A stretch of DNA of 64,000 nt from Candidatus Lloydbacteria bacterium (GTDB taxonomy: Bacteria; Patescibacteriota; Minisyncoccia; Phycocordibacterales; 21-14-all-47-15), in contig JACROH010000001.1 of the NCBI GenBank assembly GCA_016214545.1, forward strand, positions 116,239 through 180,238, read 5' to 3'. Every line of letters begins with the position of its first letter. Positions within the stretch are counted from its first letter, which is position 1. Made by a program: the position numbers and the translations under genes. Of this stretch, positions 178-44,725 are shown piece by piece. The notes below the pieces were generated by a model. It was not told the origin of the DNA and searched no databases. It saw nothing but the letters and a program-made list of their open reading frames with translations.

Positions 178-2259
178 ATGTTTTCATTAAAAACGACTTC
201 ACGATTGGTGATAGGAATGCTCGTTGTTCAGATGCTCTATTCGTTTTTTCCTATCGGAGTTTTGGCTAGTACCGGAACTTTTAATTCTACCGCCGACGCC
301 TATCTCTCAAGCGGTTCGCCAAATGCCAACAACAGCACGGGCATCATTATGGACCTAATCAACACGAGAGATGGAGTCGTTCGCTTTGACACGAGCTCTA
401 TACCTTCGGGCTCGACGATTACTTCGGCAACGCTGACGTTGGTAGCGACCGCGGTCGGTAGCGCCACGTCGATTAAAAATTATGGGGCGCATCGCATATT
501 GGTTGATTGGACTGAAAGTACGGTTACCTGGAATACTCCCGGCAGTACGGCCGGGACCCATTTTGCGACTTCGCCGACGGATACGGTTGCCGTTTCTACC
601 GCCGGCTCATATAGCTGGAATGTGACGAGCGATGTGGCGAGTTTCATCGCCGGAAGCGCTACCAATTATGGCTGGCGTATTATTTGGTCTTCAAACACAA
701 GCGGCACCAATAAACAAGTTGATTTTGGAACAAAAGAAAATACTACGGCGTCTAATCGACCGGTTTTGAGCGTTACCTATACCACTCCCGACACTATCGC
801 GCCATCGGCGGTTTCAGACCTTGCCCTTTCGAGTCCTTCAAATTCTGCGATAACTGTTTCATGGACGGCTCCGGGAGATGATGCTTCCACCGGCACTGCG
901 GCGAGCTATGATTTACGCTATTCAACTTCTGCGATTACTTCCGGCAATTTCAGTTCAGCTACTGCGGTCACCGGTGAGCCAACGCCGTTAGTCGCTGGCA
1001 CTTCTCAATCAATGACGGTCACAGGTCTTTCTCCAAGCACCACCTACTATTTCGCCATCAAAACTTCCGATGAAGTTCCGAATACCTCGGCAATCTCAAA
1101 TGTTCCGAGCTTGGCAACGACGGCAACCCCCGACACTACCGCGCCATCGGCGGTTTCAGATCTGGCCGCGTCGGGCGCAACCGCGTCGTCAGTCCTTCTT
1201 TCGTGGACGGCTCCCGGTGATGACGCCTCCACCGGCACTGCGACAAGTTATGAAATCCGCTACTCCACAAGCAATATCACCGATGGAAATTATTCCGGAG
1301 CGACCCAGGTGAGTGGAGAGCCTGCGCCGCAAGCGGCGGGGGCCAGTCAATCAATGACGGTCACAGGTCTTTCTCCAAGCACTACCTACTATTTCGCTAT
1401 CAAAACTTCAGATGAGGTGCCGAATGCCTCGGCGATTTCGAATGTGCCGAGTTTGGCAACGACGGCAAGCGGCGGTGGGGGCGGCGGAGGAACAGAGACA
1501 TCAAGTTCGGGTGGTGCCGGGGCCGCCGTGTTGCCGACCAGGGTGGTCATTTCCGGGCAAGCATACCCGGGTGCAAAAGTGGATTTGCTCCGAAAAAGCA
1601 TTCAAGACGAGATATACCGAAATACGCCGGAAGCTATCTCAACCGTGTCCGCCGACGGCACTTTTTTCATACAGCTCACGGCGCTTCTCCAGGGGCAGTA
1701 TTTCTTTGCGCTTCGCATCGCAGATAAAGACGACAGAAAGACCGGCAACATCGCTTTTAACGTTGATTTGACGAGTGCAAATGAGCTTGTCGCGCGAGAT
1801 CTTTTTGTTCCGCCAACTATTGATTTTGAAACAGCTATCGTTCCGCTTGGAAAAGAAATAAAGGCACAAGGGTATGCCGCTCCCAAAAGCAGTGTTGTCG
1901 TCGAAATTGATGGTATACTGAAAGAGGAAGTGAAATCAGAAGAGGACGGCTTATGGTCTTTTGCGACAAGCACGGCGTCTTTCCGCATAGGGAATCATTA
2001 CGCGCGGGTAAAACAAACGGGCGCAAGCGGCAAAGAAAGCGAGTTCTCATCATCGCGCGCGTTTCGTGTCTCGCTTCTTGCTGTGCCAAAATCGGATTTA
2101 AATAATGACGACAAGATTACTATTGCCGATTGGAGCATCTTTCTTTTCAGGTGGGGCTCCAAAGATACGGCGTTAAGAAGTAAAATTGACATGAACAATG
2201 ACGGGAAAATTGACATTTCAGACTTGAGCATTTTTTTAAAAACGTTAAAGACGCTATAA
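178..2259 (+). CDS. Secreted multidomain surface protein: signal peptide, DNRLRE-like N-terminal domain, two tandem fibronectin-III-like repeats, Gly-rich linker, Ig-like region, C-terminal type-I dockerin
   Basis: 693-aa ORF with a hydrophobic N-terminus; two near-identical repeats (TTPDTIAPSAVSDLA...TTYYFAIKTSDEVPN). The C-terminus DLNNDDKITIADWSIF...DMNNDGKIDISDLSIF forms the duplicated Ca-binding dockerin motif. Confidence 0.85.
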   Translation: MFSLKTTSRLVIGMLVVQMLYSFFPIGVLASTGTFNSTADAYLSSGSPNANNSTGIIMDLINTRDGVVRFDTSSIPSGSTITSATLTLVATAVGSATSIKNYGAHRILVDWTESTVTWNTPGSTAGTHFATSPTDTVAVSTAGSYSWNVTSDVASFIAGSATNYGWRIIWSSNTSGTNKQVDFGTKENTTASNRPVLSVTYTTPDTIAPSAVSDLALSSPSNSAITVSWTAPGDDASTGTAASYDLRYSTSAITSGNFSSATAVTGEPTPLVAGTSQSMTVTGLSPSTTYYFAIKTSDEVPNTSAISNVPSLATTATPDTTAPSAVSDLAASGATASSVLLSWTAPGDDASTGTATSYEIRYSTSNITDGNYSGATQVSGEPAPQAAGASQSMTVTGLSPSTTYYFAIKTSDEVPNASAISNVPSLATTASGGGGGGGTETSSSGGAGAAVLPTRVVISGQAYPGAKVDLLRKSIQDEIYRNTPEAISTVSADGTFFIQLTALLQGQYFFALRIADKDDRKTGNIAFNVDLTSANELVARDLFVPPTIDFETAIVPLGKEIKAQGYAAPKSSVVVEIDGILKEEVKSEEDGLWSFATSTASFRIGNHYARVKQTGASGKESEFSSSRAFRVSLLAVPKSDLNNDDKITIADWSIFLFRWGSKDTALRSKIDMNNDGKIDISDLSIFLKTLKTL
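781..1470 (+). repeat. Internal tandem duplication (~345 bp x2, ~85% nt identity) encoding two FN3-like modules inside the dockerin protein gene
   Basis: Direct comparison of 781-1124 with 1125-1470: both carry acaggtctttctccaagcac(c/t)acctactatttcgc(c/t)atcaaaacttc and flanking similarity. Confidence 0.8.
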
Positions 2260-2263
2260 CCAT

Positions 2264-4024
2264 ATGGCAAAAAATTTTTTTACAGTATGTTTTTCACTCC
2301 TTGTCTTTTTCTGGTCGGCTTTTTCGGCAAATGCCGCCACTATTTCTCTTTTGCCGCAAGCGCGCGCTTTTGGCATCGGGCAGGAATTCAGCGTTGATAT
2401 AAAAATTGATACCGAAGAAGCATACATTAACGCAAGCCAGGCGACGGTGCGGTTTCCTGTTAGCGTGCTTGAGCTGGTAAGCGTTGATAAAACAAACTCT
2501 GCTTTTGGTTTTTGGGTTGAGGAGCCGAAAATCTCAAACGATGAAGGCACGCTCATGTTTACCGGCGGTACAACGAGCGGTGTTTCGGGCGGCTCTCTCC
2601 AGATTTTGAAATTGAAATTTAAAGCAAAAGGCACGGGACTCGCCGAGATTGCCCTGCAAGACGCGGCGATCACGGCTTCCGACGGCAAGGGAACGAACGT
2701 TCTCTCGGCACTCAAGGGGACGAGTGTTTCCGTGGGAACGCAAGTTGTTGTCCCGATTGCCCCTTCGGTTCCATCTTCTGTCAAACCATCTGCTCCCGCT
2801 GTCCCTGTCGCTCCGACTGTTGAACCGCAAAAAATAATCCGAGAGGCCGTTGTGGCGCAAAAATTGCCGGAGAAACCGCTGCTTCGGGTCCCGTTATATT
2901 CTGACGCAACCCGTTGGTACAATCACCAAGGAGAAGCGGCTGTCTTTTGGGATGTTCCATCGGACGCTATTGAGGCGGCCGTGGTCGTCGACCATAGCCC
3001 GTTAACGAAGCCGCAAAAGCCTGAACCAGAATTATTAACCGGCAAAAATCTCGGAGTTTTGAAAGAGGGAGAGTGGTATGTTCACGCGCGATTTAGGAAC
3101 AACATCGGATGGGGTGACACCGCGCACTTTAAGATTTCAATTGACGCAACGCCCCCACTGCCGTTTGAAATCAAAGATTCACTCACGAGCGATAATCCAA
3201 CCCCGGAAATAAAATACGAGGCGCACGACGCGCTCTCGGGGGTTTCTCACAATATTCTCTTTCTTGATGGTAAAGAATTCGTGAAAGGGACTACCACTTC
3301 TACCGTATTGCCACCGCTGTTGCCCGGTCCCCATATGGTACTGGTGCGGGTATTTGACTTGGCGGGCAACAGTGCCGAGAGCGATTTAAAATTTGAAATC
3401 TTGCCGCTTGCGACGCCAATCGTTGATTTTGTATCAAGTTCAATAATCCAGGGGGAGTCTCTGTATGCGTCGGGAAAATCAATTCCGAATGCATTTGTCG
3501 ATGTGCGTATAGTAGATAAGCGGCAGCGGGAAGTGATATCGGAGAGCGCAAAAAGTGATAATAGAGGCGATTGGAAAATTTCAATAAATGACCCCCTGCC
3601 AACCGGTACGTACACCATTTCTATCACGGCGCGCGATGAACGGGGAGCGAGGAGTTTCTCTGCGGATGTCGGGGCGCTCAAGGTGCATCCGAGAACCGTA
3701 TTATCATTGGGCGGAGTCGTCGACCTCGGCTGGTTTGAAATTCTCCTTATTTTGATACTCTTTATTACCTCGGCAACCGGACTCTTCGCATGGCAGTATG
3801 TTTCAAAAAATAAGACGCGCGAGGCATATAAAATGATTGTCGGCAGAGACGTCAATAAATTTGTAGACATGCTCGTTTCTTTTTTGAAAGAGTTTGAGAG
3901 CGCCGGAGATTTGAACGAAGACAGCCGTCGCGTAAAACAAAAAGCGCTCATAGAGCAGGCCAGAGAAACGGTTGCAAAAATGAAAAAATACATCGGCGAA
4001 GAAGTGAATAGACTGGGGAAGTAA
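2264..4024 (+). CDS. Membrane-anchored protein with N-terminal signal peptide and cohesin-like domain, C-terminal TM helix and cytoplasmic tail
   Basis: 586-aa ORF; N-terminal AATISLLPQARAFGIGQEFSVDIKIDT...LQILKLKFKAKGTGLAEIAL resembles type-I cohesin. Hydrophobic segment GWFEILLILILFITSATGLFAW near the C-terminus; start lies 5 bp after the dockerin gene stop. Confidence 0.8.
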   Translation: MAKNFFTVCFSLLVFFWSAFSANAATISLLPQARAFGIGQEFSVDIKIDTEEAYINASQATVRFPVSVLELVSVDKTNSAFGFWVEEPKISNDEGTLMFTGGTTSGVSGGSLQILKLKFKAKGTGLAEIALQDAAITASDGKGTNVLSALKGTSVSVGTQVVVPIAPSVPSSVKPSAPAVPVAPTVEPQKIIREAVVAQKLPEKPLLRVPLYSDATRWYNHQGEAAVFWDVPSDAIEAAVVVDHSPLTKPQKPEPELLTGKNLGVLKEGEWYVHARFRNNIGWGDTAHFKISIDATPPLPFEIKDSLTSDNPTPEIKYEAHDALSGVSHNILFLDGKEFVKGTTTSTVLPPLLPGPHMVLVRVFDLAGNSAESDLKFEILPLATPIVDFVSSSIIQGESLYASGKSIPNAFVDVRIVDKRQREVISESAKSDNRGDWKISINDPLPTGTYTISITARDERGARSFSADVGALKVHPRTVLSLGGVVDLGWFEILLILILFITSATGLFAWQYVSKNKTREAYKMIVGRDVNKFVDMLVSFLKEFESAGDLNEDSRRVKQKALIEQARETVAKMKKYIGEEVNRLGK

Positions 4025-4050
4025 AAATAGTATTAGTAGTACAAAAAGAA

Positions 4051-4089
4051 AAATCGCTAAAGCGTGTCTTTAGCGATTTTTCTTTTTTT
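4051..4089 (+). terminator. Rho-independent terminator after the cohesin gene
   Basis: aaatcgctaaag-cgtgtc-tttagcgattt hairpin followed by a T-run. Confidence 0.75.
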
Positions 4090-4140
4090 CCTCTGTCTTG
4101 CGACAGAGTCGGGCCGAAGCCGTTTGTATTTATATGATAC
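4090..4140 (+). repeat. Copy A of a ~50-bp motif: hairpin with TTGCGA loop, then GGCCGAAGCC..TTGTA.TTA.AT.ATAC
   Basis: cctctgtcttgcgacagagtcgggccgaagccgtttgtatttatatgatac; partner copy at 4610-4658. Confidence 0.7.
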
Positions 4141-4204
4141 TTGGCATTGTATCAAAGTCAAACAAAATTTTTGTTTTGCAGCTTTTTGATTTATACTGTT
4201 TGGT

Positions 4205-4588
4205 ATGAAAAAAGATTTTGATAGTTGGAATGGAGCGAAGAAAAAAACAAACGTGGAATATCCTCGCCTCTATACCGTTCGCGAGATATGGTGGTGCCGC
4301 CTCGGTGTAAATATCGGTTCTGAACAGGATGGAAATGGCCGCTCATTTCTCCGCCCAATTGTTATAATGCGTGCGTTTGGTCCAGAAACGTGTGTTGTTG
4401 TTCCTCTTACCACGTCAGAACAGAAACATCCGCTCCGTATTCCCGTTGGAAAGATACAAGAACGGAATGCATCAGCCTTGCTTTCTCAGGTTCGTGTTAT
4501 TGATACTCGTCGCTTGGTAGAAAAGGTGGGGTTTCTTGATAAGGAAACTTTTGAGCGCTTAAGAAAAGCCGTCAGAAATTTGTTCTGA
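4205..4588 (+). CDS. MazF/PemK-family toxin (mRNA interferase), apparently solitary
   Basis: 127 aa; RLGVNIGSEQDGNGRSFLRPIVIM...CVVVPLTTSEQ aligns with the MazF/PemK core (GSEQ.G.RP.vv.s / c.p.Tt). No antitoxin-sized ORF upstream or downstream. Confidence 0.8.
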   Translation: MKKDFDSWNGAKKKTNVEYPRLYTVREIWWCRLGVNIGSEQDGNGRSFLRPIVIMRAFGPETCVVVPLTTSEQKHPLRIPVGKIQERNASALLSQVRVIDTRRLVEKVGFLDKETFERLRKAVRNLF

Positions 4589-4600
4589 CGGCTTTTCTTT
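4564..4600 (+). terminator. Rho-independent terminator after the mazF-like gene
   Basis: aaaagccgtcagaa-atttgt-tctgacggctttt followed by a T-rich run. Confidence 0.75.
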
Positions 4601-4609
4601 TGCTGTTCT

Positions 4610-4658
4610 CCCTCTTGCGAGGGTAAGGCCGAAGCCACTTGTACTTACATATTATACC
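4610..4658 (+). repeat. Copy B of the ~50-bp motif (see 4090-4140)
   Basis: ccctcttgcgagggtaaggccgaagccacttgtacttacatattatacc shares the TTGCGA-loop hairpin, GCCGAAGCC and TTGTA.TTA.AT blocks with copy A. Confidence 0.7.
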
Positions 4659-4667
4659 TTATAATAT
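4639..4667 (+). promoter_or_regulatory. Candidate sigma70-type promoter (TTGTAC-17-TAATAT) for the downstream coiled-coil protein gene
   Basis: Hexamers at 4639-4644 and 4662-4667 with 17-nt spacing, about 70 nt upstream of ATG 4740. Confidence 0.5.
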
Positions 4668-4739
4668 GTAGAGTCAAGCGCATACGGTGCGTATCAGTGC
4701 GTATTGCAAAAAGGCCGAGAAAAGGGCTACAATATCATA

Positions 4740-5993
4740 ATGAAAAAACTATCCACAATCGCTCTCTCGTTGCTTTTGGTAGTCTCTTTTGTTTTGCCCT
4801 CTTCCGCTTTAGCCGCGGCAAGCCCTGGCGTGAAGCCCGGAAGTTTCTTTTATTTTTTTGACACCACTTTTGAAAAAGTGGGGCTCTTTTTTACATTCAA
4901 CCCCGAACAAAAAGCGAGAAAAGCGCTTGAGTATGCCGATGAACGATTGGCGGAAATAGAATCCGTCGCGGAAGAAAAAAATCCCGATGCGGTGAAGACG
5001 GCTCTCGCCGATTATGAAAACAACATCGCGCTCGCCACGGAAAAATCAAAAGAAATAAAAGACAAAGCGCAAGCGGAAAGCCTGCTTACCTCCATTGAAG
5101 ACAACGCTTCAAAAAATCAGGAGGCGTTATCGGCCGTTTTGATTAAAGTGCCCGAAGAAGCAAAGGCGGCGATAGAGCAGGCGATTGAAGCAAGCAAAAA
5201 AGGCCAGGAAGAAGCGGCAAAGCAGGTAGCGGAACTCAAAAAAGAAGTCTCGGAGCTCAAACAAGAGCTTGAGAACGTGAAAGAAAAGCTCAAAGAAAAA
5301 GAAACGGCGCCAAAAGCGGGCGATACTGCTGATGCGAATGACGCGAAAGATGAAGAGAAAGAGGCGGTAGAAGAACTCAAAAGCGAAATAAAAAATCTGA
5401 AACAAGAAATAGATGAACCGGAGGAAATAGAAAGTAAATTATTTAAAAAGCAGTCATATCTTGTTACTCCAAGTGGTGCAAAAGTTGATGAAAAAGGCAA
5501 TATCCTTAATCAAGACGAGCTAGATCTTATAATAGCGGATGTGGCAGAAAAGGATCGAGTGAAAAAAGAAAGTCTTTGGAGAAAAAAAATAGCTGAGAAT
5601 AAAATCTTAAAAGAAAAGCAAGATGAACAAAACATTATCGCAGACGAATTAAGAAGACTGGAAATCGTTGATAGTCTTAACAGAGAATATGGAATGAAAA
5701 TAAATAATTTAAAGAAACAACTTATTGAAATAAATATTTTGGATAATGGAATTAAAGCTACCGAGATACTTAGGTTTTACGGAAATAAAACATCACAATA
5801 CCCGGATTTTATCGATACTGATTTTAAAAAACAAGCAATAATAACAATCTATAATAAATTAGATAATATTAATCCTGTTAGTCGAAGTTCTGGTCACGTT
5901 ATAGAATTTATTAGAGAACAAACCTCTTCAATAAATACTCAAATATATTTACTTCAAAATGAACTAGAAAGGAAGCTTTTAGAAATTAAATAA
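4740..5993 (+). CDS. Secreted coiled-coil protein of unknown function with an AT-rich C-terminal module
   Basis: Start at the MKKLSTIALSLLLVVSFVLPSSALA signal peptide (ATG 4740, within the longer ORF 4704). Long E/K/A-rich heptad-like region; the last ~190 codons drop to ~30% GC. Confidence 0.8.
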   Translation: MKKLSTIALSLLLVVSFVLPSSALAAASPGVKPGSFFYFFDTTFEKVGLFFTFNPEQKARKALEYADERLAEIESVAEEKNPDAVKTALADYENNIALATEKSKEIKDKAQAESLLTSIEDNASKNQEALSAVLIKVPEEAKAAIEQAIEASKKGQEEAAKQVAELKKEVSELKQELENVKEKLKEKETAPKAGDTADANDAKDEEKEAVEELKSEIKNLKQEIDEPEEIESKLFKKQSYLVTPSGAKVDEKGNILNQDELDLIIADVAEKDRVKKESLWRKKIAENKILKEKQDEQNIIADELRRLEIVDSLNREYGMKINNLKKQLIEINILDNGIKATEILRFYGNKTSQYPDFIDTDFKKQAIITIYNKLDNINPVSRSSGHVIEFIREQTSSINTQIYLLQNELERKLLEIK

Positions 5994-6014: not shown

Positions 6015-6050
6015 AAAACCAACCTTTTAAAAGGTTGGTTTTGTTTTGTT
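6015..6050 (+). terminator. Rho-independent terminator between the coiled-coil gene and pheS
   Basis: aaaaccaacctttt-aa-aaggttggtttt followed by gttttgtt. Confidence 0.7.
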
Positions 6051-6075
6051 GAAAATCTTCGCTATACTGAAGAAT

Positions 6076-6804
6076 ATGGAAAAAAGTGGGCATTTGCATC
6101 CGCTTACGCATGTTATCCGCCATATGGTGGGTATTTTTCGCGAGCTTGGGTTTCAGGTGGCAGAAGGGCCGGAAATTGAAACCGAACACTATAACTTTGA
6201 CGCGCTGAACATTCCCAAAGACCATCCGGCGCGGGATATGTGGGATACCTTTTGGCTTAAACCGCAAAATAGAGGTTTGCTTTTGCGCACGCACACGTCG
6301 CCTGTGCAGATTCGCTACATGGAAAAACATAAGCCGCCGATACGGATTATCGTGCCCGGTAAAGTGTTTCGGTATGAAGCGACCGACAGCACGCACGAAG
6401 CGCAGTTTTATCAGCTGGAAGGGCTTCTCATAGATAAAGATATTTCGCTCGCGCATTTGAAGGGCGTGCTTGGAAAGTTTTTTGAAGGGCTTTTTGGTAG
6501 GCAGACGGCAGTGCGTTTGCGCCCGAGCTACTTTCCGTTCGTTGAGCCGGGGGTGGAGGTGGACGTATCGTGTTTCAAGTGCGGAGGCAGGGGGTGCGGG
6601 CTTTGCAAAGAGAGCGGCTGGATTGAGATCATGGGGGCGGGCATGGTGCACCCGAACGTGCTCCGCGGCGTGGGCATAGACGAGCGGGAGTGGCAGGGCT
6701 TTGCCTTCGGCATCGGGATTGACCGCGTGGCGATGCTGAAATACGGTATAGACGATATCCGTCTCTTGTACCAAGGCGATTTGCGAGTGGTGAATCAATT
6801 CTAA
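6076..6804 (+). CDS. pheS: Phenylalanine--tRNA ligase alpha subunit (short form lacking the N-terminal coiled coil)
   Basis: Class-II aaRS motifs ([30 protein letters not shown]). The ORF opens at TTG 6046, but that overlaps the upstream terminator T-run, so ATG 6076 (MEKSGHLHP) is preferred. Confidence 0.85.
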
Positions 6805-6899: not shown

Positions 6900-9320
6900 A
6901 TGGTTATCTCACACAATTGGCTACAATCATTTTTTAAGGAAAAACTGCCGGTGCCGGAAAAAGTGGCGGAGCTTTTGACGATGCGCTCTTTTGAGGTGGA
7001 GTCGTTTGAAAAAAGGGGAGACGATACTATTTTTGAAATTGATATTTTGCCCAATCGCGCGCATGACTGCCTCTCGCATCGCGGTGTGGCGCGTGAACTT
7101 GCGGCTTTGCTTAGTTTGAAATTGGAGGATGGAGGAAAAAAATCCTCGTTTGAACTTGTGAAAGTACCCCGCGCGCTCTCGGTTCGCATTGAAGACGAAA
7201 AATTGTGCCGCCGATACGTCGGGCGGACGATTGAGAATGTGAAGGTCGTCCCTTCGCCGGACTGGCTTCGCCTACGGCTGGAATCTATCGGACAAAAATC
7301 AATCAACAACGTAGTAGACGCGACCAATTACGTGATGTTTCATCTGGGCCAGCCGATGCACGCGTTTGATGCGGATAAGCTTGCCTCTCCGGACATCATC
7401 GTGCGCAAAGCGCGTAATGGGGAGCGTATTACCACGCTTGATAAAAAAGAAGTGACACTTTCTTCCGATACGCTCGTTATTGCCGACACTGAAAGCGTGC
7501 TTGCCATCGCGGGCATCAAAGGAGGCACGAAAGCGGAAGTGGACGAGTCAACAAAAAATCTTATTTTGGAGGCGGCCAATTTTGAGCCCTCAAATATAAG
7601 ACGGACGGCGCAGAAAACGGGCATTCGTACCGATTCTTCAAAGCGGTTTGAACAGGGGATTGCTACAGAGCTTGCGCTTGAGGCGATGGAGCTCGCAACC
7701 GAGCTTGTCGTTCAAATAGCGGGCGGCAAAGAAACGCGTGAGGGCGGCATGATAGACCAATACCCGCGCCCGGGCGCACAATATAAAGTCGGTGTGTCGC
7801 TTGAGGAAATAAACTCGCTCTTGGGGCTCTCGCTTCGCGAAGAAGAAGTTGCGAGCATTCTTCTACGTCTCGGTTTTCAATACGAAATTCTTGACCCGAT
7901 AAAAAAAGTGCTTGAACTTGCACCGACATTTGCGGGCGCGCCATACAAACATGGCGCAAGTGTCGTCTATGATGCGCCGCGTGCGTTTGATTGCTCATCA
8001 TTTACCGCATATCTTTTCGCGCAGGCGGGGGTGGCGATTCCGCGCATGTCTGTTGACCAGTATGTGTTTGGAAAAGAAGTGTCGCTTGAAGAAATTACCG
8101 CGGGCGATTTAATATTCTCAAACACGCATGAGGGGACACAGCATGAAAAAAGCATTGATTTTTTTCCGGGAACACCGGTATCGGAACATATTGACCACGT
8201 CGGGCTTTTTCTTGGAGATGGCATGGTGATTCACGCATCGCGCCATAACGGCTCGGGCGAAGTGCTGAGCGAGAAGCTCAAAGAAAGCAAGGCGTTTACG
8301 CATATTGTCGGTGTGCGCCGTGTGTATGAGGGCAGCAAGCGTTTTGCCGTGACGGCACCCAACGAACGGCTTGATATCCGCATCGCGTATGACCTGATTG
8401 AAGAAATCGGGAGGGTGCACGGCTATGGCGATATTCCGGAAGCTCTGCCGGCCGTCTTGCAAAAAAATGAAATTGAATCGTGTATTTTTTATCAAAACGC
8501 CGTTCGTGAAATTTTGGCGGACGAAGGATTTTCTGAAATCTACACGTATACGTTTGTGGGCAAGCAAGACGGCGTAACACAGCCCGAGCTTGAAAATCCG
8601 CTCGCTGCTGATAAAGCCTTTTTGCGCGGAACGCTTGCGACCGAATTTTTTGAAAAATTTGAAACCAACGCCTACTATGCCGATTTGCTCGGCATTGATA
8701 CGGTGAAGATTTTTGAAATCGGCAGAGTATTCTCCGCCCAAGGCGGAGATGATGAGGCAGAGAAGGAAGTCTTGGGCATTGGAGTGAAACGGGTGAAGAA
8801 AAACAAAAAAGCCATGTCGGCGGAAGATGCGCTCTCGGAGGCGCTTGAAAAACTTTTTCTTGTGCTTGGCCTTAATGAGTCGCTCGTGCCGGCAGAAGCA
8901 ATTCAAATAAATAAAGAGAAGATGAGCGCATTTATAGAACTGCCGCTTGAAAAACTTTTTGCAAATGTTGATAGAAACATAATCCAAAAACTTTTTGATG
9001 AACGCCGGATGTTTGCTCCGTCGCCCGATGTTTCCTACCGACCGCTTTCAAAATATCCTTTTATCGCGCGTGATATTGCGGTGTTTGTGCCGGAATCAGT
9101 TGATGCGGGGGCGATTGCTTCGCTCATCAAAAATACGGCAGGAGAAAATCTTGTCCGGTATTGGCTTTTTGACACGTTTGAAAAAGACGGGAAAAAATCG
9201 TTCGCATTCCGATTGATATTCCAATCATACGAAAAAACGCTTTCAGACGAAGAAGTAAATGCGGTCATGTCCCGAGTGTCTAAAGCTTTTGAAGCAAACG
9301 ACGGGTGGAAAGTCAGATAA
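6900..9320 (+). CDS. pheT: Phenylalanine--tRNA ligase beta subunit with an NlpC/P60 (C40 peptidase) domain inserted into the B5 domain
   Basis: N-terminal, B3/B4 (IFEIDILPNRAHDCLSHRGVAREL; VVDATNYVMFHLGQPMHAFD) and B5 (LEEINSLLGLSLREEEVASILLRLGF) regions are collinear with PheT. Residues ~333-480 read YKHGASVVYDAPRAFDCSSF...IPRMSVDQ...GDLIFS...HVGLFLGDGMVIHAS, the NlpC/P60 signature. PheT resumes at VTAPNERLDIRIAYDLIEEIGRVHGYGDIP. Confidence 0.9.
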   Translation: MVISHNWLQSFFKEKLPVPEKVAELLTMRSFEVESFEKRGDDTIFEIDILPNRAHDCLSHRGVARELAALLSLKLEDGGKKSSFELVKVPRALSVRIEDEKLCRRYVGRTIENVKVVPSPDWLRLRLESIGQKSINNVVDATNYVMFHLGQPMHAFDADKLASPDIIVRKARNGERITTLDKKEVTLSSDTLVIADTESVLAIAGIKGGTKAEVDESTKNLILEAANFEPSNIRRTAQKTGIRTDSSKRFEQGIATELALEAMELATELVVQIAGGKETREGGMIDQYPRPGAQYKVGVSLEEINSLLGLSLREEEVASILLRLGFQYEILDPIKKVLELAPTFAGAPYKHGASVVYDAPRAFDCSSFTAYLFAQAGVAIPRMSVDQYVFGKEVSLEEITAGDLIFSNTHEGTQHEKSIDFFPGTPVSEHIDHVGLFLGDGMVIHASRHNGSGEVLSEKLKESKAFTHIVGVRRVYEGSKRFAVTAPNERLDIRIAYDLIEEIGRVHGYGDIPEALPAVLQKNEIESCIFYQNAVREILADEGFSEIYTYTFVGKQDGVTQPELENPLAADKAFLRGTLATEFFEKFETNAYYADLLGIDTVKIFEIGRVFSAQGGDDEAEKEVLGIGVKRVKKNKKAMSAEDALSEALEKLFLVLGLNESLVPAEAIQINKEKMSAFIELPLEKLFANVDRNIIQKLFDERRMFAPSPDVSYRPLSKYPFIARDIAVFVPESVDAGAIASLIKNTAGENLVRYWLFDTFEKDGKKSFAFRLIFQSYEKTLSDEEVNAVMSRVSKAFEANDGWKVR

Positions 9321-9323
9321 TTC

Positions 9324-9875
9324 ATGCTAGAGAAAGATTTTGTTTTAAAAGTTCCATACTATTCGCAGCATCGTGATGTGAAAGACCCGACATGGCGGCA
9401 CCGTGCGTGTGGCATAGCCTGTTTTAAAATGGCGCTTGCGTATGCGGGGAAAGAAACGCCCCCACTTGATGAGATGATTCACGCGCATCGTGCGGCGGCG
9501 TACCAGGAAGGAGTGGGTTGGAAACACATGCCGCTCGTAGATATTGCGGTTACAGAATACGGCCTCAAAGATTCTTATCGAAAGGAGTATCGGGAGGTGC
9601 CGTTCGCAGAAGCTTTTTTGGGGCTTGTGTCGTCGCTAAAAAACAATTGCCCGCCGATTGTTTCCATCTTCCAAGACGAATCGCGCAAGGGCTCTCATTT
9701 GATTGTATTGACCGGATTCCGCGTTTCTCAAGACGGAGGATTTGAGGGTGTGCGCTATCACGACCCCGACTCTCTCATTGAAGAAGAGAAGAAAACGGAT
9801 CTCTCCATGGATATACCCGCGTTTGAAAAAAGATGGCGGAAGCTTGCGATTTTTATCGGTGCACAAAAGGCATAG
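9324..9875 (+). CDS. Peptidase C39-like (papain-fold) domain protein
   Basis: VPYYSQHRDVKDPTWRHRACGIACFKMALAYAG matches the C39-like / BtrH-type motif (YYSQ...W...CGpas.aM.l.y.G) with downstream His (GSHLIVLTGF) and Asp (HDPD). Start lies 4 bp after the pheT stop. Confidence 0.7.
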   Translation: MLEKDFVLKVPYYSQHRDVKDPTWRHRACGIACFKMALAYAGKETPPLDEMIHAHRAAAYQEGVGWKHMPLVDIAVTEYGLKDSYRKEYREVPFAEAFLGLVSSLKNNCPPIVSIFQDESRKGSHLIVLTGFRVSQDGGFEGVRYHDPDSLIEEEKKTDLSMDIPAFEKRWRKLAIFIGAQKA

Positions 9876-9894: not shown

Positions 9895-9930
9895 AAAAAC
9901 CGCGAGCAAGAAAAGCTCGCGGATTTTAAA
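9895..9930 (+). terminator. Bidirectional rho-independent terminator
   Basis: aaaaaccgcgagc-aagaaaa-gctcgcggatttt between convergent genes. Confidence 0.7.
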
Positions 9931-10369
9931 AGATAAACGATAAAAAATAGGGTCCGGTAACGGTTGATAGAAACCAGCACACAAAGAACGCGTACACAAT
10001 CACCACATGGCATCGTTTCCAATACTTTTTCTCACACTGCCTTTCCCGATAGGCGGCAAACCCCGACAAGATAACCAGCACAATACAGGCAATGAATACA
10101 ATAGACGCCCACACATGAACGCGAATGATAAGGGTTGATATCTGCGAATATGTGGCGTGCTCGGCAATGCGGAGCATGTACCATATCGCGAATCCTTCGC
10201 AGGCGAAACCAAAAAGCGAGATGATGCCGTGCCATATTTTTCCTTCTCGCGCGCATTTCCAGGTGATGATGTAGAGGCAAAACGCAAGCCCCACCATTCC
10301 GGATACGATAATCGCTTCGCTCATTCTGCCGAGCCCCCTTTTAATTAAGTGTGTGATATAAAAAAACAA
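9926..10369 (-). CDS. Small integral membrane protein (about 4 TM helices), unknown function
   Basis: 147-aa ORF, strongly hydrophobic segments, sits in a gap between convergent terminators. Confidence 0.6.
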   Translation of the reverse strand: MFFYITHLIKRGLGRMSEAIIVSGMVGLAFCLYIITWKCAREGKIWHGIISLFGFACEGFAIWYMLRIAEHATYSQISTLIIRVHVWASIVFIACIVLVILSGFAAYRERQCEKKYWKRCHVVIVYAFFVCWFLSTVTGPYFLSFIF

Positions 10370-10458: not shown

Positions 10459-11418
10459 ATGGAAACAATTTCACAAAAACCAAAAACATCGCCGAAAGAT
10501 TTTTTTATAAATCTTGGCGTCGTGGCCGCGCTCTATATGGGCGTGATAAGCGTTTTGAATCTTCTTTTTGATGTTATCAATCGTGTTTTTCCGGACCCGC
10601 TTTCGCCGTATGTCGACCCATACGCAGGCACAATCAAATGGACGATTGCGTCGCTCGTGATTGTCTTTCCGCTCTACCTCTGGCTTTCGCGAATTTTAAA
10701 TACTGATATTGAACGAAACCCAGAAAAACGGGAGCTCTCGGTGCGCAAATGGCTTGTATACTTGACCCTTTTTGTCGCGGGAGTAGCTATCGCGATTGAC
10801 CTCATCGTGCTTATCAACACGTTTTTGGGCGGAGAAATCACGACGCGCTTTCTTTTGAAGGTGTTTACGGTCGCGATTGTGCTCGGTGTCATTTTCAGCT
10901 ACTACCTCTCCGATATCAAAGGAAAATTTATCAACGGCAGTGGGCGAAAATATTTTGCGTGGGGGGCGTTGCTTTTTGTCGTTCTTTCTATTGCAACCGG
11001 TTTTTTTGTAATGGGTTCTCCTCAAACACAGCGCCTCCTTCGTTTTGACGAAACGCGCGTAGGGAATCTCCAAATGATTCAGTCGCAAATCGTAACCTAT
11101 TGGCAGCAAAAAGAAGTGCTCCCAAAGACGCTTGGTGACCTCAAAGATCCGATAAGCGGTTTTGTTATTCCGACTGACCCTGCGACGGGCGTTTCGTATG
11201 AATATGCGGCGACAGGAAAATTGTCGTTTCAGTTGTGCGCGGAATTTAGCCGCGACACGGCAGCAACAGCAGCCTCAAAAGCGGTTCGAGCGCCGGTGTA
11301 TCCGTACGGAGACTATGTCGGGGACGCGAGCAACGAAAATTGGCAGCACGGTGTCGGGCGAGTTTGCTTTGACCGAACCATTGACCCCGAGCGCTACCCG
11401 CCTCTCAAAAAACGCTAA
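10459..11418 (+). CDS. Integral membrane protein (multi-TM N-terminal half, soluble C-terminal half), unknown function
   Basis: 319-aa ORF with several predicted TM helices (LGVVAALYMGVISVLNLLF, LVYLTLFVAGVAIAIDLIVLI, FTVAIVLGVIFSYYL, ALLFVVLSIATGFFVMG). Confidence 0.7.
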   Translation: METISQKPKTSPKDFFINLGVVAALYMGVISVLNLLFDVINRVFPDPLSPYVDPYAGTIKWTIASLVIVFPLYLWLSRILNTDIERNPEKRELSVRKWLVYLTLFVAGVAIAIDLIVLINTFLGGEITTRFLLKVFTVAIVLGVIFSYYLSDIKGKFINGSGRKYFAWGALLFVVLSIATGFFVMGSPQTQRLLRFDETRVGNLQMIQSQIVTYWQQKEVLPKTLGDLKDPISGFVIPTDPATGVSYEYAATGKLSFQLCAEFSRDTAATAASKAVRAPVYPYGDYVGDASNENWQHGVGRVCFDRTIDPERYPPLKKR

Positions 11419-20414: not shown

Positions 20415-21509
20415 ATGTCAAGTATCGCTGTTAAAAACAAAAAGAGGGTATTTGTCGGACTTTCCGGCGGGGTTGATTCGTCGGTCGCCGCGGCGCTCTT
20501 AAAAAAAGAAGGATACGATGTGACGGGTGTGTTTATCAAAACATGGCATCCGGATTTTTTGCCGTCCGCCTCGTCTCCGAGTCGAGACGGGTGCACGTGG
20601 AGAGAAGAGCGGCTTGACGCGATGCGTGCCGCCGCACATTTGGATATTCCGTTTCTCACGTTTGATTTTGAAAATGAATACAAAAAAAATGTCGCGGATT
20701 ATTTTATCAGCGAATACAAAATGGGGAGAACGCCCAATCCTGATGTCATGTGCAACAAAGAAATTAAATTTGGCGCATTTTTAAAAAAAGCGAGAGCAAT
20801 GGGAGCGGATTTTGTGGCCACCGGACACTATGCGCGGAAAGACGGCGCGGAGCTTCTTACCGGAGTTGATACCGGCAAAGACCAGGCATATTTTTTATGG
20901 ACACTCTCGCAAGAGCAATTGAGCCGTTGCTTGTTTCCCATCGGCAAATATAAAAAAAATGACGTGCGGAAGCTTGCAAAAAAATTCGGGCTGCCGACCG
21001 CGGAGAAAAAAGATAGCCAAGGTATCTGTTTTCTTGGCAAGACCGACATGAAAGAATTTTTAGCACACTACATGACGCCACGTGTTGGGTCTGTGGTGAG
21101 CGAACAAGGAAAGACCATCGGTACGCACCAAGGGGCGTTCTTTTATACCTTGGGAGAACGGCATGGATTTACCATTACCGCTCATAACGACCGGGCAAAA
21201 CCATACTATATTGTTAAGAAAGACTTGGAAAATAACACTATAATGGTTTCACACGTTATCCACAGCGGAGACAAGCATTTTTCACATAAAGAAATAAATT
21301 TGGAGAATGTCAATTGGATTTCCGGCATTGCCCCCGACGAAAGCAAACAATATACGGCGCACATTCGCTACCACGGAGAGTTCTTGCCGTGCCAAATAAA
21401 AGAGAGCGGCAAGAAAGTTATTTTTAAAAAGCCGTGTCTCGCGGCATCGGGTCAATCAGTTGTCGTATATGACGGCGATGTTTGTCTGGGCGGCGGTATT
21501 GTCGCGTAA
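20415..21509 (+). CDS. mnmA: tRNA-specific 2-thiouridylase MnmA
   Basis: VFVGLSGGVDSSVAAALLKKEGYDVTGVFIK PP-loop; catalytic Cys region and C-terminal barrel conserved. Confidence 0.9.
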   Translation: MSSIAVKNKKRVFVGLSGGVDSSVAAALLKKEGYDVTGVFIKTWHPDFLPSASSPSRDGCTWREERLDAMRAAAHLDIPFLTFDFENEYKKNVADYFISEYKMGRTPNPDVMCNKEIKFGAFLKKARAMGADFVATGHYARKDGAELLTGVDTGKDQAYFLWTLSQEQLSRCLFPIGKYKKNDVRKLAKKFGLPTAEKKDSQGICFLGKTDMKEFLAHYMTPRVGSVVSEQGKTIGTHQGAFFYTLGERHGFTITAHNDRAKPYYIVKKDLENNTIMVSHVIHSGDKHFSHKEINLENVNWISGIAPDESKQYTAHIRYHGEFLPCQIKESGKKVIFKKPCLAASGQSVVVYDGDVCLGGGIVA

Positions 21510-21565
21510 GATTAAAAGACGGAGTCCGCTTTGAATTCTTTCTTTTCTGGGATACTATTTTGAAT

Positions 21566-23338
21566 ATGCAGTCAGGAGAAATCCGCAATAGATTTTTAAC
21601 TTTTTTCAAAAAACGGGAACATGCGATTATCCCAAGTGCTTCGCTCGTGCCTGAAAATGACCCTTCCGTGCTTTTTACGACGGCCGGCATGCAGCCCTTG
21701 GTGCCGTATCTTTTAGGAGAACCGCATCCGGCGGGAAAGCGATTGGCGAATGTGCAGAAGTGTGTCCGCACGCAAGACATCGATGAGGTGGGAGACGCGA
21801 CGCACGATACTTTTTTTGAAATGCTCGGCAACTGGTCGCTCGGTGATTACTTCAAAGAAGAAACGATTAAATGGAGTTATGAATTTTTGACCTCAAAAGA
21901 GGAGGGGCTCGGGCTTGATCCGTCGCGGCTCTACATTACCGTCTTTGGCGGGAACGATTCGGTAAAAGAAGCTGATGAAGAATCAAAAAAAAACTGGATG
22001 TCGCAAGGGATTTCTGAGCGCCGTATATACACCATGGAAGGGGAGACAAACTGGTGGAGCCCGGGAGATAATGGCCCCTCTGGCCCCGATACGGAAATGT
22101 TTTATGATGTGACCGAAAAGGGTCTTGGAGATTTGACCAAAGAAGAATTTATGCGCGCCGATGAAGAGCAAAAGGTGGTTGAGATCTGGAACGACGTATT
22201 CATGGAGTATGAGAAGAAAGGCGGAAAAGTAACGGGCAAATTGAAGAATAAAAACGTAGATACGGGGGCGGGGCTTGAACGGCTTGCGATGGTGATGCAG
22301 GGGAAAGACAACATTTTTGAGACGGATTTGTTCAAACCGCTCATGAACGCGATTGAAATGCGCGCGATGTCTAACGGCGCGCGCGCGAAACGGATTCTTG
22401 CCGACCATGTTCGCACGGCGGTCTTTATGATCGGCGACGGCGTGCTTCCGTCAAACACCGACCGCGGGTATATTTTACGGCGGCTCATTCGCCGCGCGGT
22501 GCGGTATGTTGATGTGCTCGGCATGAAAGAAGGAGCCCTCGCGGCGCTTTCCGATGTGGTGGTTGAAACGTATGCCGGTGTTTATAAAAATCTTTCTTCG
22601 GAGAAAGTGCACATTGGGCAGACGATTGCCGACGAATCTGCGAAATTCCGACAGACGCTTGAACGGGGGATGCGCGAGTTCGAAAAAATAAGCGCAAGCG
22701 GTATTTCCGGGAAAGAAGCCTTTGCGCTTTTTTCAACGTATGGATTTCCTTTTGAATTAACGCTTGAACTCGCCGCCGAACAAAATATTACGGTTAATAA
22801 AAAAGAATTTGAAGAAGAATTGCAGAAACACCAAGCGCTTTCACGTGCGGGTGCGGAGAAAAAATTCAAAGGAGGGTTGTCCGGGCACGGAGAAATGGAA
22901 ACCAAATATCACACAGCGACGCACCTTTTACATCAGGCGCTGCGGTTGGTGTTGGGAGAGCATGTTATTCAAAAAGGAAGCAACATTACGCCGGAGCGGC
23001 TCCGCTTTGATTTCTCACATCCTGAAAAATTGACGGACGAAGAAAAGAAAAAAGTGGAGGATATTGTAAACGAAGAGATAGCCCGCGCTTTGCCGGTCTC
23101 ATACGAAGAATTGCCGATAGAAGAAGCGCGCGCCCGCGGCGCTATCGGCGCATTTGGCGACAAATACGGCGAGATGGTGAAAGTCTATACAATAGGAAAT
23201 GAAAAAACGGGTGTCTTCAGCGCTGAGTTTTGCGGTGGCCCGCATGTTAAAAATACATCCGAGCTCGGGCATTTCAAAATAACCAAAGAAGAAGCGGTCG
23301 CGCAAGGGATACGGCGCATCAAGGCGGTGCTTGGGTAA
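21566..23338 (+). CDS. alaS: Alanine--tRNA ligase, short form (catalytic plus editing domains, no C-Ala domain)
   Basis: N-terminus FLTFFKKREHAIIPSASLVPENDPSVLFTTAGMQP...CVRTQDIDEVG...HDTFFEMLGNWS; editing-domain HTATHLLHQ and CGGPH motifs. Start at ATG 21566 inside ORF 21482. Confidence 0.9.
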   Translation: MQSGEIRNRFLTFFKKREHAIIPSASLVPENDPSVLFTTAGMQPLVPYLLGEPHPAGKRLANVQKCVRTQDIDEVGDATHDTFFEMLGNWSLGDYFKEETIKWSYEFLTSKEEGLGLDPSRLYITVFGGNDSVKEADEESKKNWMSQGISERRIYTMEGETNWWSPGDNGPSGPDTEMFYDVTEKGLGDLTKEEFMRADEEQKVVEIWNDVFMEYEKKGGKVTGKLKNKNVDTGAGLERLAMVMQGKDNIFETDLFKPLMNAIEMRAMSNGARAKRILADHVRTAVFMIGDGVLPSNTDRGYILRRLIRRAVRYVDVLGMKEGALAALSDVVVETYAGVYKNLSSEKVHIGQTIADESAKFRQTLERGMREFEKISASGISGKEAFALFSTYGFPFELTLELAAEQNITVNKKEFEEELQKHQALSRAGAEKKFKGGLSGHGEMETKYHTATHLLHQALRLVLGEHVIQKGSNITPERLRFDFSHPEKLTDEEKKKVEDIVNEEIARALPVSYEELPIEEARARGAIGAFGDKYGEMVKVYTIGNEKTGVFSAEFCGGPHVKNTSELGHFKITKEEAVAQGIRRIKAVLG

Positions 23339-44593: not shown

Positions 44594-44667
44594 GCCGAGG
44601 TAGCTCAGTTGGTTAGAGCATTTGCCTGAAGAGCAAAGGGTCGGCGGTTCGACTCCGCCCCTCGGCA
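44594..44667 (+). tRNA. tRNA-Phe (anticodon GAA)
   Basis: GCCGAGG-TA-GCTCAGTTGGTTAGAGC-A-TTTGC-CTGAAGA-GCAAA-GGGTC-GGCGG-TTCGACT-CCGCC-CCTCGGC-A, then CC. Confidence 0.9.
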
Positions 44668-44725
44668 CCGAACGAAGTAAAACGAAGTGAGGAGACGAGG
44701 GGGCTTTGTGCTGCGCGTAGCGGAC

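Follow-up and report, generated by a model that had tools for sequence, protein, structure and literature searches.

A cysteine peptidase domain of the NlpC/P60 type nested in the phenylalanyl-tRNA synthetase beta subunit of 'Candidatus Lloydbacteria' and related bacteria

Why does an essential subunit of an aminoacyl-tRNA synthetase carry what looks like a complete peptidoglycan-type peptidase in the middle of one of its core domains? The question is raised by pheT, the gene for the beta subunit of phenylalanyl-tRNA synthetase (PheRS), in a stretch of 64,000 nucleotides from a 'Candidatus Lloydbacteria' genome (contig JACROH010000001.1, positions 116,239 to 180,238; hereafter the window, in whose own numbering positions are given). 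A preliminary description of this DNA had proposed that an NlpC/P60 (C40) cysteine peptidase domain, complete and catalytic-looking, is inserted in the B5 domain of PheT from 7896 onward, that the next gene encodes a second papain-like fold, and that the two are functionally linked. We found these claims to be sound, and traced the nested domain through a broad clade of related bacteria, up to lineages in which it outlives most of its host protein. The parts of the gene are as follows:

6900-9320, + strand: pheT, PheRS beta subunit, 806 aa (TIGR00472)
7206-7724, + strand: B3/B4 editing domain (Pfam B3_4, E=2.5e-66)
7767-7895, + strand: N-terminal half of B5, helices and first hairpin strand
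7896-8336, + strand: nested NlpC/P60 (C40) cysteine peptidase domain, aa 333-479 (Pfam, alignment)
7992-7994, 8196-8198 and 8232-8234, + strand: catalytic codons of Cys365, His433 and His445
8121-8195, + strand: family-specific beta-hairpin loop of ~25 residues, aa 408-432 (alignment, model)
8337-8432, + strand: C-terminal half of B5 (Pfam B5 at aa 476-509)
8433-9317, + strand: catalytic-like module B6/B7 and FDX-ACB anticodon-binding domain B8 (Pfam)

The protein as a whole is a PheT. It matched TIGR00472 with 476.9 bits (cutoff 402.65) in two stretches flanking the insert, and Pfam placed B3_4, a split B5, NLPC_P60, tRNA_synthFbeta (E=2e-12), and FDX-ACB (E=1.7e-21) on it. Aligned with PheT of Thermus thermophilus (2iy5_B) it was collinear in two blocks, residues 41-329 corresponding to 152-436 of the Thermus protein and residues 480-800 to 440-775. 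From this collinearity on both sides it follows that the ~147-150 residues of the insert stand in place of a 3-residue turn of the B5 hairpin. Insert-less relatives have 0-2 residues at the insertion point, and 0 in nearly all of them.

Is the insert a whole enzyme or a fragment? The Pfam match (PF00877) covers aa 346-415 with E=1.4e-18 (67.3 bits against a 23-bit cutoff) and spans model positions 1-67 of 105; it is partial because the family-specific loop breaks up the domain. The remainder of the P60 domain, both histidines included, is present beyond the match, and 34 P60 chains in the PDB match the insert at E<0.01. Cys365, His433, and His445 are in register with the triads of the solved P60 enzymes 7cfl and 4xcm, in a papain-like alpha+beta fold of non-permuted order (Cys helix first). 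The loop itself, located between the GDLIFS strand and the catalytic His, is a gap in the alignments with 7cfl, 4xcm, and 4fdy and is absent in canonical P60 enzymes; its length and sequence are conserved over 120 homologues, and its strands are predicted by the structural model. That AlphaFold2 model of PheT (predicted local distance difference test score, pLDDT, 92.5) holds two intact nested folds, according to which the insert is an autonomous domain and B5 and the peptidase are both predicted to fold completely.

The catalytic residues are close to invariant. Among the 120 closest PheT homologues, Cys365 and His433 occur in 120/120 and position 445 is His in 115/120, and all 110 full-length inserts from two contig collections have the Cys and the first His. 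Mean column conservation is 0.66 for the insert, against 0.72 for B3/B4, 0.67 for FDX-ACB, and 0.46 for the catalytic-like module. The residues that would bind substrate show a similar pattern. The cytosolic endopeptidase YkfC recognizes gamma-D-Glu in an S1 site made of Tyr226, a hydrophobic residue at 228, Asp237, Ser239, and a small residue at 257, with Arg255 in the hydrogen-bond network that supports it (PMC2954226). We mapped these residues on the insert by motif equivalence, not by superposition of ligand structures; the Cys-to-Arg and His-to-His spacings are the same in both proteins:

YkfC Tyr226: Y349, in 119/120
YkfC Trp228 (hydrophobic): position 351, variable; His in the window, hydrophobic in ~60% of the family
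YkfC Asp237: D364, in 116/120
YkfC Ser239: S366; S, A or T in 120/120
YkfC Arg255: R382, in 116/120
YkfC Asp256: position 383; M, I, V or L in 116/120, never Asp
YkfC Ser257 (small): S384; a small residue in 120/120

Four of the five positions of the gamma-D-Glu signature thus agree (Y349, D364, S366, and S384, each in at least 116/120), and the 228-equivalent deviates. No SH3b domain was found in PheT with Pfam, and since it also lacks an Asp256 equivalent the insert is not a member of the YkfC subfamily: by its sequence, it is an enzyme of the P60 type that has kept most of the gamma-D-Glu pocket. The patterns of conservation indicate strong purifying selection on the Cys-His-His triad and on most positions of the S1 signature, and argue that the nested domain is a real, catalytically competent enzyme.

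The host, for its part, looks like a fully functional beta subunit, as judged by its conserved residues. N143, H154, and E224 align with N250, H261, and E334 of the Thermus protein, which we take to be the editing-site residues of PheRS, and these B3/B4 residues are intact in 21/21 insert-bearing PheTs, the E334 equivalent included. Insert-less loci of Paceibacteria were also covered for this glutamate (L019-L040, L051, and L077): it is replaced by Ser, Val, or Thr in 6/17 insert-less PheTs from the Candidate Phyla Radiation (CPR). Editing may be degenerating in some insert-less lineages. The acidic residues of B5 on the far side of the insert (D492, D498, E501, and E502, aligned with Thermus D452, D458, E461, and E462) are conserved in 21/21 insert-bearing PheTs; they presumably form the Mg2+ site that UniProt annotates as shared with the alpha subunit.

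This PheRS is also a minimal one. No PF01588 match for the B2 (EMAP/tRNA_bind) domain was found in PheT, whose alignment passes over Thermus residues 40-151, and B2 is kept in only 2/120 homologues (P0032 and P0047, ~900 aa). The alpha subunit is encoded just upstream:

6046-6804, + strand: pheS, PheRS alpha subunit (Pfam tRNA-synt_2d, E=6e-103, aa 9-252)

The true start of pheS is probably the ATG at 6076. Its product, of ~242-252 aa, comprises the catalytic core only; the N-terminal coiled coil with which the T. thermophilus protein binds tRNA is missing. Short homologous PheS genes (231-251 aa) stand before pheT in related loci, and the losses of B2 and of the PheS coiled coil are common to insert-less relatives.

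How far does the nested architecture extend? The insert, with its PF00877 match, is present in 120/120 closest PheT homologues, down to 44% identity, in sequences labelled Yonath-, Campbell-, Terry-, Nomura-, and Taylorbacteria, Paceibacterota, and Minisyncoccia. When the insert only was searched against 1.84 billion representatives, 86 clusters (50% identity) were obtained at E<=1e-30, most of the matches being proteins of ~780-810 aa with the match at residues ~335-480; the two contig collections held 110 full-length-insert loci, ~90 of them non-redundant at 95% identity. The insertion is lineage-wide over a broad Parcubacteria/Paceibacteria clade, to which 'Candidatus Lloydbacteria' belongs here. 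On a neighbour-joining tree of PheT minus the insert, insert-bearing and insert-less genes are interleaved; because this tree carries no support values, we claim no number of gains or losses. Many TPA metagenome bins with a Parcubacteria-type PheT are titled 'uncultured Candidatus Saccharibacteria bacterium' (L005-L008, L011, L019-L022, L025, and others), probably a generic or incorrect taxonomic label, and such doubtful titles make record titles alone unfit for inferring the taxonomic spread of the insert.

The breadth of this distribution also disposes of a trivial explanation, an assembly chimera, frameshift, or annotation artefact, to which we give practically no credence. An identical protein exists in NCBI, from a 'Candidatus Lloydbacteria' metagenome-assembled genome on a 270,910-bp contig, under the name 'C40 family peptidase'. 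GC content is even across the insert, with no break, and the reading frame is continuous. Misassembly is excluded because the same architecture recurs in that identical protein and in 120 homologues from independent assemblies, as it does in the ~90 non-redundant loci, and the model of the nested fold is confident.

Directly behind pheT lies the second peptidase gene, and the preliminary description was right about its fold and its adjacency; the gene starts 3 nt past the pheT stop codon and not 4 bp downstream, a trivial difference:

9324-9875, + strand: gene for a C39_2-like cysteine peptidase, 183 aa (Peptidase_C39_2 match)
9366-9368, 9408-9410, 9696-9698 and 9762-9764: codons of its putative catalytic residues Gln15, Cys29, His125 and Asp147

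The product has a C39-like fold and no signal peptide, and matches Peptidase_C39_2 (PF13529) with E=5e-10 (40.5 bits, cutoff 24); the match to PF03412, Peptidase_C39 proper, is below threshold. Q15, C29, and H125 are invariant in 30 sequences, while D147 is invariant in 15 sequences and present in at least 90% in the set of 30. The 132 matches that make up this subfamily are all single-domain proteins of 160-217 aa and all from Patescibacteria, with none outside this group or fused to informative domains, and they neighbour pheT and gyrB, not transporters.

Association of the two peptidases was counted in species-dereplicated genome loci, insert-less ones being scanned within 6 kb and including close Paceibacteria. 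A C39 homologue follows pheT in 18/20 insert-bearing and 0/60 insert-less loci (Fisher p=5e-16), and C39 tracks the insert on the crude neighbour-joining tree mentioned above, itself devoid of support values. Conversely, 4/4 highly divergent C39 members (~25-27% identity) lie downstream of insert-bearing pheT, one with an intervening gene and one after a gap of ~870 bp. In P0215 and P0227, B5-NlpC/P60 and a C39-like domain are joined in one polypeptide chain. Co-occurrence, reciprocal synteny, and these two fusions back the functional link that had been suggested: the C39-like enzyme is cytoplasmic, co-transcribed, co-inherited, and occasionally fused with the insert. What the preliminary description had missed is that C39 is a real, frequent but not obligatory partner, and that stand-alone remnants of the insert sit beside single-chain PheRS. 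The idea of an obligate partner had to be dropped, as 17/58 PheT loci and 8/10 informative stand-alone loci lack C39. We also rejected the idea that C39 excises the insert at its boundaries, there being no conserved Gly-Gly-type motif at either junction in the 120-sequence alignment. At one locus, L087, a gene for an FAD-dependent oxidoreductase (HI0933-like, 3579-4820) stands between the insert-bearing pheT and the C39 gene.

Among the matches of the insert-only search are proteins of ~200-233 aa, with their own start and stop, that consist of the N-terminal half of B5, the NlpC/P60 domain, and the C-terminal half of B5. In 12 of the 14 loci with DNA (L084 and 11 further metagenome loci), as well as on the contig of P0183, this stand-alone gene lies directly beside a single-chain PheRS, in co-directional or divergent orientation; two cassettes, L081 and L083, do not adjoin PheRS. 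The single-chain PheRS, of 382-389 aa, is a PheS core fused to FDX-ACB and has no B3/B4 editing domain, which implies that Tyr-tRNA(Phe) is not edited in cis in these bacteria. It was observed at L084 (4853-6001), L142, L143, L149, L156, L159, L161, L164, L166, L168, L169, and L172. The flanks are the same as for full-length pheT (glycosyltransferase ... pheS - [pheT or remnant] - C39 - gyrB), and because of this shared synteny we take the stand-alone genes to be in-situ remnants of PheT. C39 accompanies them at L081-L084, L156, and L164, and eight other loci are cleanly without it, with gyrB immediately downstream.

The triad is kept in 14/14 stand-alone proteins examined and the B5 halves are always kept, whereas the B5 acidic residues are degenerate. 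The B5-NlpC/P60 unit therefore persists, its triad intact, after loss of the remaining PheT. Two sub-clades depart from the common pattern. One (L084, L142, L143, L149, and L156) has an extra conserved segment of 19 residues inside the family-specific loop, IHT[DE]GxY[FY]SQVLGxEVxEE; the other, which includes the fusions P0215 and P0227, carries the paired changes D364S and R382S. These sequence differences point to divergence in substrate or partner.

What, then, would the nested enzyme do? The reading we favour, tentatively and with a confidence slightly short of even, is that it is a cytoplasmic gamma-D-glutamyl endopeptidase for salvage or turnover of peptidoglycan peptides, merely hosted in PheT. 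The nested domain would cleave gamma-D-Glu-diamino acid bonds of wall-derived or precursor-type stem peptides in the cytoplasm, setting free the diamino acid and L-Ala-D-Glu for reuse, and such salvage would be valuable to organisms that make a wall despite their minimal biosynthesis. MurC and MurJ are encoded in the window, and on this ground we consider that the organism builds peptidoglycan. The C39-like enzyme would be an accessory on the same substrate, upstream or downstream, for instance removing an N-terminal blocking group or splitting the product. PheT would then be merely a constitutively expressed scaffold. B5 is a helix-turn-helix-like domain to which no catalytic role is assigned (PMC3275996), and for that reason its hairpin could tolerate the insertion; the family-specific loop and/or B5 may replace the substrate gating done by SH3b in YkfC. 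Precedents exist: cytosolic YkfC does such peptide salvage in Bacillus and Chlamydia (PMC2954226, PMC9928106), the chlamydial case being a cytosolic NlpC/P60 recycling peptidase in a genome-reduced organism (PMC9928106). Moonlighting in peptidoglycan or peptide processing is thus the better of the functions offered in the preliminary description, provided that it takes place in the cytoplasm.

Several observations weigh against this salvage role. The activity is assigned from sequence and fold; within the pocket, the position equivalent to Trp228 (S1/S2) is variable and hydrophobic in only ~60%, and D364 and R382 have become Ser in one stand-alone sub-clade. YkfC Asp256 and the SH3b determinants that spare UDP-MurNAc-peptide precursors are absent, leaving unexplained how the enzyme would spare those precursors. 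C39 is lacking in 2/20 species loci and from the surroundings of 17/58 informative PheT metagenome loci (~29%, in a set that is not dereplicated), so the two-enzyme pathway is not obligatory as drawn. Finally, a pure 'passenger' model does not explain why the remnant stays beside PheRS, even divergent or inverted, nor why an essential synthetase subunit became the host.

One alternative, which we regard as doubtful, is chemistry coupled to PheRS itself. In such a scheme the Cys hydrolase would work on what the neighbouring synthetase produces, either by hydrolysing mischarged or modified aminoacyl-tRNA(Phe) or aminoacyl-adenylate as extra proofreading, or by capturing Phe as a thioester and passing it on to an acceptor, for example a stem peptide. 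The insertion lies in B5 next to the acidic cluster D492/D498/E501/E502, the B5 halves are always kept, and the B5-NlpC remnant adjoins an editing-less single-chain PheRS in 12/14 loci and at P0183, in both orientations. Cys-His enzymes of the P60 superfamily, namely LRAT-type members, can handle esters and thioesters. Yet every insert-bearing PheT retains the canonical editing site, and with B3/B4 in place there is no editing gap to fill; replacement of editing by the insert is ruled out by the 21/21 count. Action of a P60 domain on tRNA would, as far as we know, be unprecedented. The S1 signature fits recognition of gamma-D-Glu and not of aminoacyl-adenosine (PMC2954226), the acidic residues of B5 that presumably touch the alpha subunit are gone from the stand-alone proteins, and adjacency can be explained by descent, the flanks being the same (glycosyltransferase ... 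gyrB), while cassettes L081 and L083 are not beside PheRS at all. The editing or acyl-transfer activity raised in the preliminary description accordingly found no positive evidence, and the kept gamma-D-Glu signature weakens it further. Its most specific form, in which Phe-AMP or Phe-tRNA made a few nanometres away loses its Phe, or a near-cognate residue, to the thiol, which then hydrolyses it or transfers it to a gamma-D-Glu stem peptide held in S1, we consider improbable. If it were true, hydrolysis would constitute a second, papain-type editing site, transfer would make PheRS a direct aminoacyl donor for modification of wall precursors, and B5-NlpC would have stayed beside the editing-less single-chain PheRS because the two still work together.

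Two further roles were considered. The two proteases could form a module that processes proteins or peptides and has nothing to do with peptidoglycan, which is unlikely but somewhat less so than coupling to PheRS: C39 would cut a specific leader or N-terminal sequence, like double-glycine peptidases, AvrRpt2, and ACTMAP, and NlpC/P60 would trim or deconjugate the product or act on another cytoplasmic substrate with a gamma-glutamyl or isopeptide link. Structural neighbours of C39 point that way, and the character of the P60 domain does not fit. A non-hydrolytic role, as a muropeptide or ligand sensor that couples wall status to PheRS activity or stability, or as a structural brace compensating for the lost B2 and coiled coil, is very improbable. 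Inactive peptidoglycan-binding P60 domains are known (NCBIfam RipD model), and extra surface could in principle help a PheRS without B2 and PheS coiled coil; against this, the nucleophile and histidines are near-absolute in more than 100 divergent sequences, stand-alone ones included, and no compensation is needed, since relatives without the insert do without B2 and the coiled coil too.

Comparison with known systems helps to place the cytoplasmic salvage enzyme that we favour. Its closest counterparts are the cytosolic YkfC-type endopeptidases (YkfC of B. subtilis and B. cereus, DPP VI of B. sphaericus, and YkfC of Chlamydia trachomatis). YkfC is restricted to peptides with a free N-terminal L-Ala by Asp256 and by Tyr118 of SH3b (PMC2954226); the insert has neither SH3b nor an Asp256 equivalent, position 383 being hydrophobic in nearly all sequences, so this gating mechanism is absent. 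It differs also in its extra hairpin loop of ~25 residues, in sitting inside a tRNA synthetase domain, and in being paired with a C39-like gene, whereas YkfC goes with partners of the ykfABCD type. Secreted DL-endopeptidases such as Acd24020 of C. difficile, LytE/CwlO of B. subtilis, and MepS of E. coli are exported and act on the sacculus; the insert has no export signal and lies within a cytoplasmic synthetase subunit. The C39-like protein differs from Peptidase_C39_2/YvpB-like proteins and from the double-glycine C39 domains of PCAT transporters in being a single-domain cytoplasmic protein with no transporter, of a subfamily restricted to Patescibacteria and syntenic with pheT.

On the side of the host, B1, B3/B4, B5, B6/B7, and B8 are collinear with the beta subunits of (alpha-beta)2 PheRS (T. 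thermophilus, E. coli, and S. haemolyticus), with conservation extending to the editing residues and to the acidic cluster of B5. The differences are the missing B2, a PheS without coiled coil, and an enzyme of 147 residues in the B5 hairpin. The single-chain architecture of some relatives (382-389 aa) resembles mitochondrial-type PheRS, PheS core plus FDX-ACB, with the distinction that the bacterial form is accompanied by a B5-NlpC remnant and the mitochondrial one has no such partner. The stand-alone B5-NlpC protein itself finds an analogue in CtdA, a free B3/B4-like canavanyl-tRNA deacylase and thus a PheT domain living as an independent gene (PMC12449066, PMC12268091). Both are single PheT domains that survive as genes of their own, but CtdA keeps the tRNA editing proper to the PheT domain, while B5-NlpC is kept for a foreign passenger enzyme.

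The genes form a compact operon on the + strand of the window, pheS - pheT - C39_2-like gene, according to the list of open reading frames (ORFs) and Pfam. Beyond it we observed:

9900-9922, no strand assigned: GC-rich hairpin of 8 bp with 7 G-C pairs, a consensus match only

The hairpin lies between the end of the operon and a convergent membrane-protein gene (9926-10369, - strand). It is likely a terminator, called on the minus strand, and may be bidirectional in action; scans of the region for promoters and terminators gave numbers of sites not above those in shuffled sequence. Proteins of obscure role, DUF5667 and DUF5671, are encoded on either side of the operon (4704-5993 and 10459-11418), the DUF5671 protein being a multi-pass membrane protein. 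Just upstream of the pheST operon is a toxin gene of the PemK/MazF family (4205-4588; Pfam E=3e-16), and no obvious antitoxin is encoded next to it in an ORF of 60 aa or more. Two large secreted or surface proteins are encoded at 178-4024: the first has CBM96, fibronectin-III, and dockerin-like modules, the second a bacterial Ig domain and a weak, below-threshold cohesin-like match, a hint of a cohesin-dockerin-type surface assembly in a CPR bacterium. Elsewhere in the window there is a tRNA(Phe) gene (44594-44669) and an AlaRS gene (21482-23338) whose product has only 618 aa, with catalytic and tRNA_SAD editing domains and apparently no C-terminal C-Ala domain, another truncated synthetase of the same genome.

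The families of all the components are known already, and so are cytosolic peptidases for wall peptides. The architecture was not found in the literature searched, which included a 2023 classification of papain-like peptidases and the AARS Online paper and covered few of the subscription journals. Three things appear not to have been described before: the nesting of an entire peptidase in a core domain of an aminoacyl-tRNA synthetase subunit, the C39 partner that co-evolves with it, and the series whose last stage is a B5-NlpC remnant standing alone next to a single-chain PheRS in bacteria. The domains that aminoacyl-tRNA synthetases have gained serve mostly to bind tRNA, to edit or, among eukaryotes, to signal; a selectively maintained peptidoglycan-type peptidase in the core domain of a bacterial synthetase falls outside this usual pattern. 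There is a practical side to it as well. Public annotation mislabels these PheT genes as 'C40 family peptidase' or 'PheT-related protein', and essential genes mislabelled in this way could distort metabolic reconstructions and essential-gene counts in CPR bacteria.

The series runs from PheT with the insert, through single-chain PheRS with a B5-NlpC remnant and the loss of C39, to B5-NlpC::C39 fusions, and it is a clear natural experiment in reductive evolution, in which the passenger enzyme has in some lineages been more indispensable than most of its host protein. If the nested enzyme serves in salvage, recycling of wall peptides would be a core need of ultra-small, biosynthetically poor bacteria; if its chemistry is coupled to PheRS, it would represent a new kind of synthetase activity.

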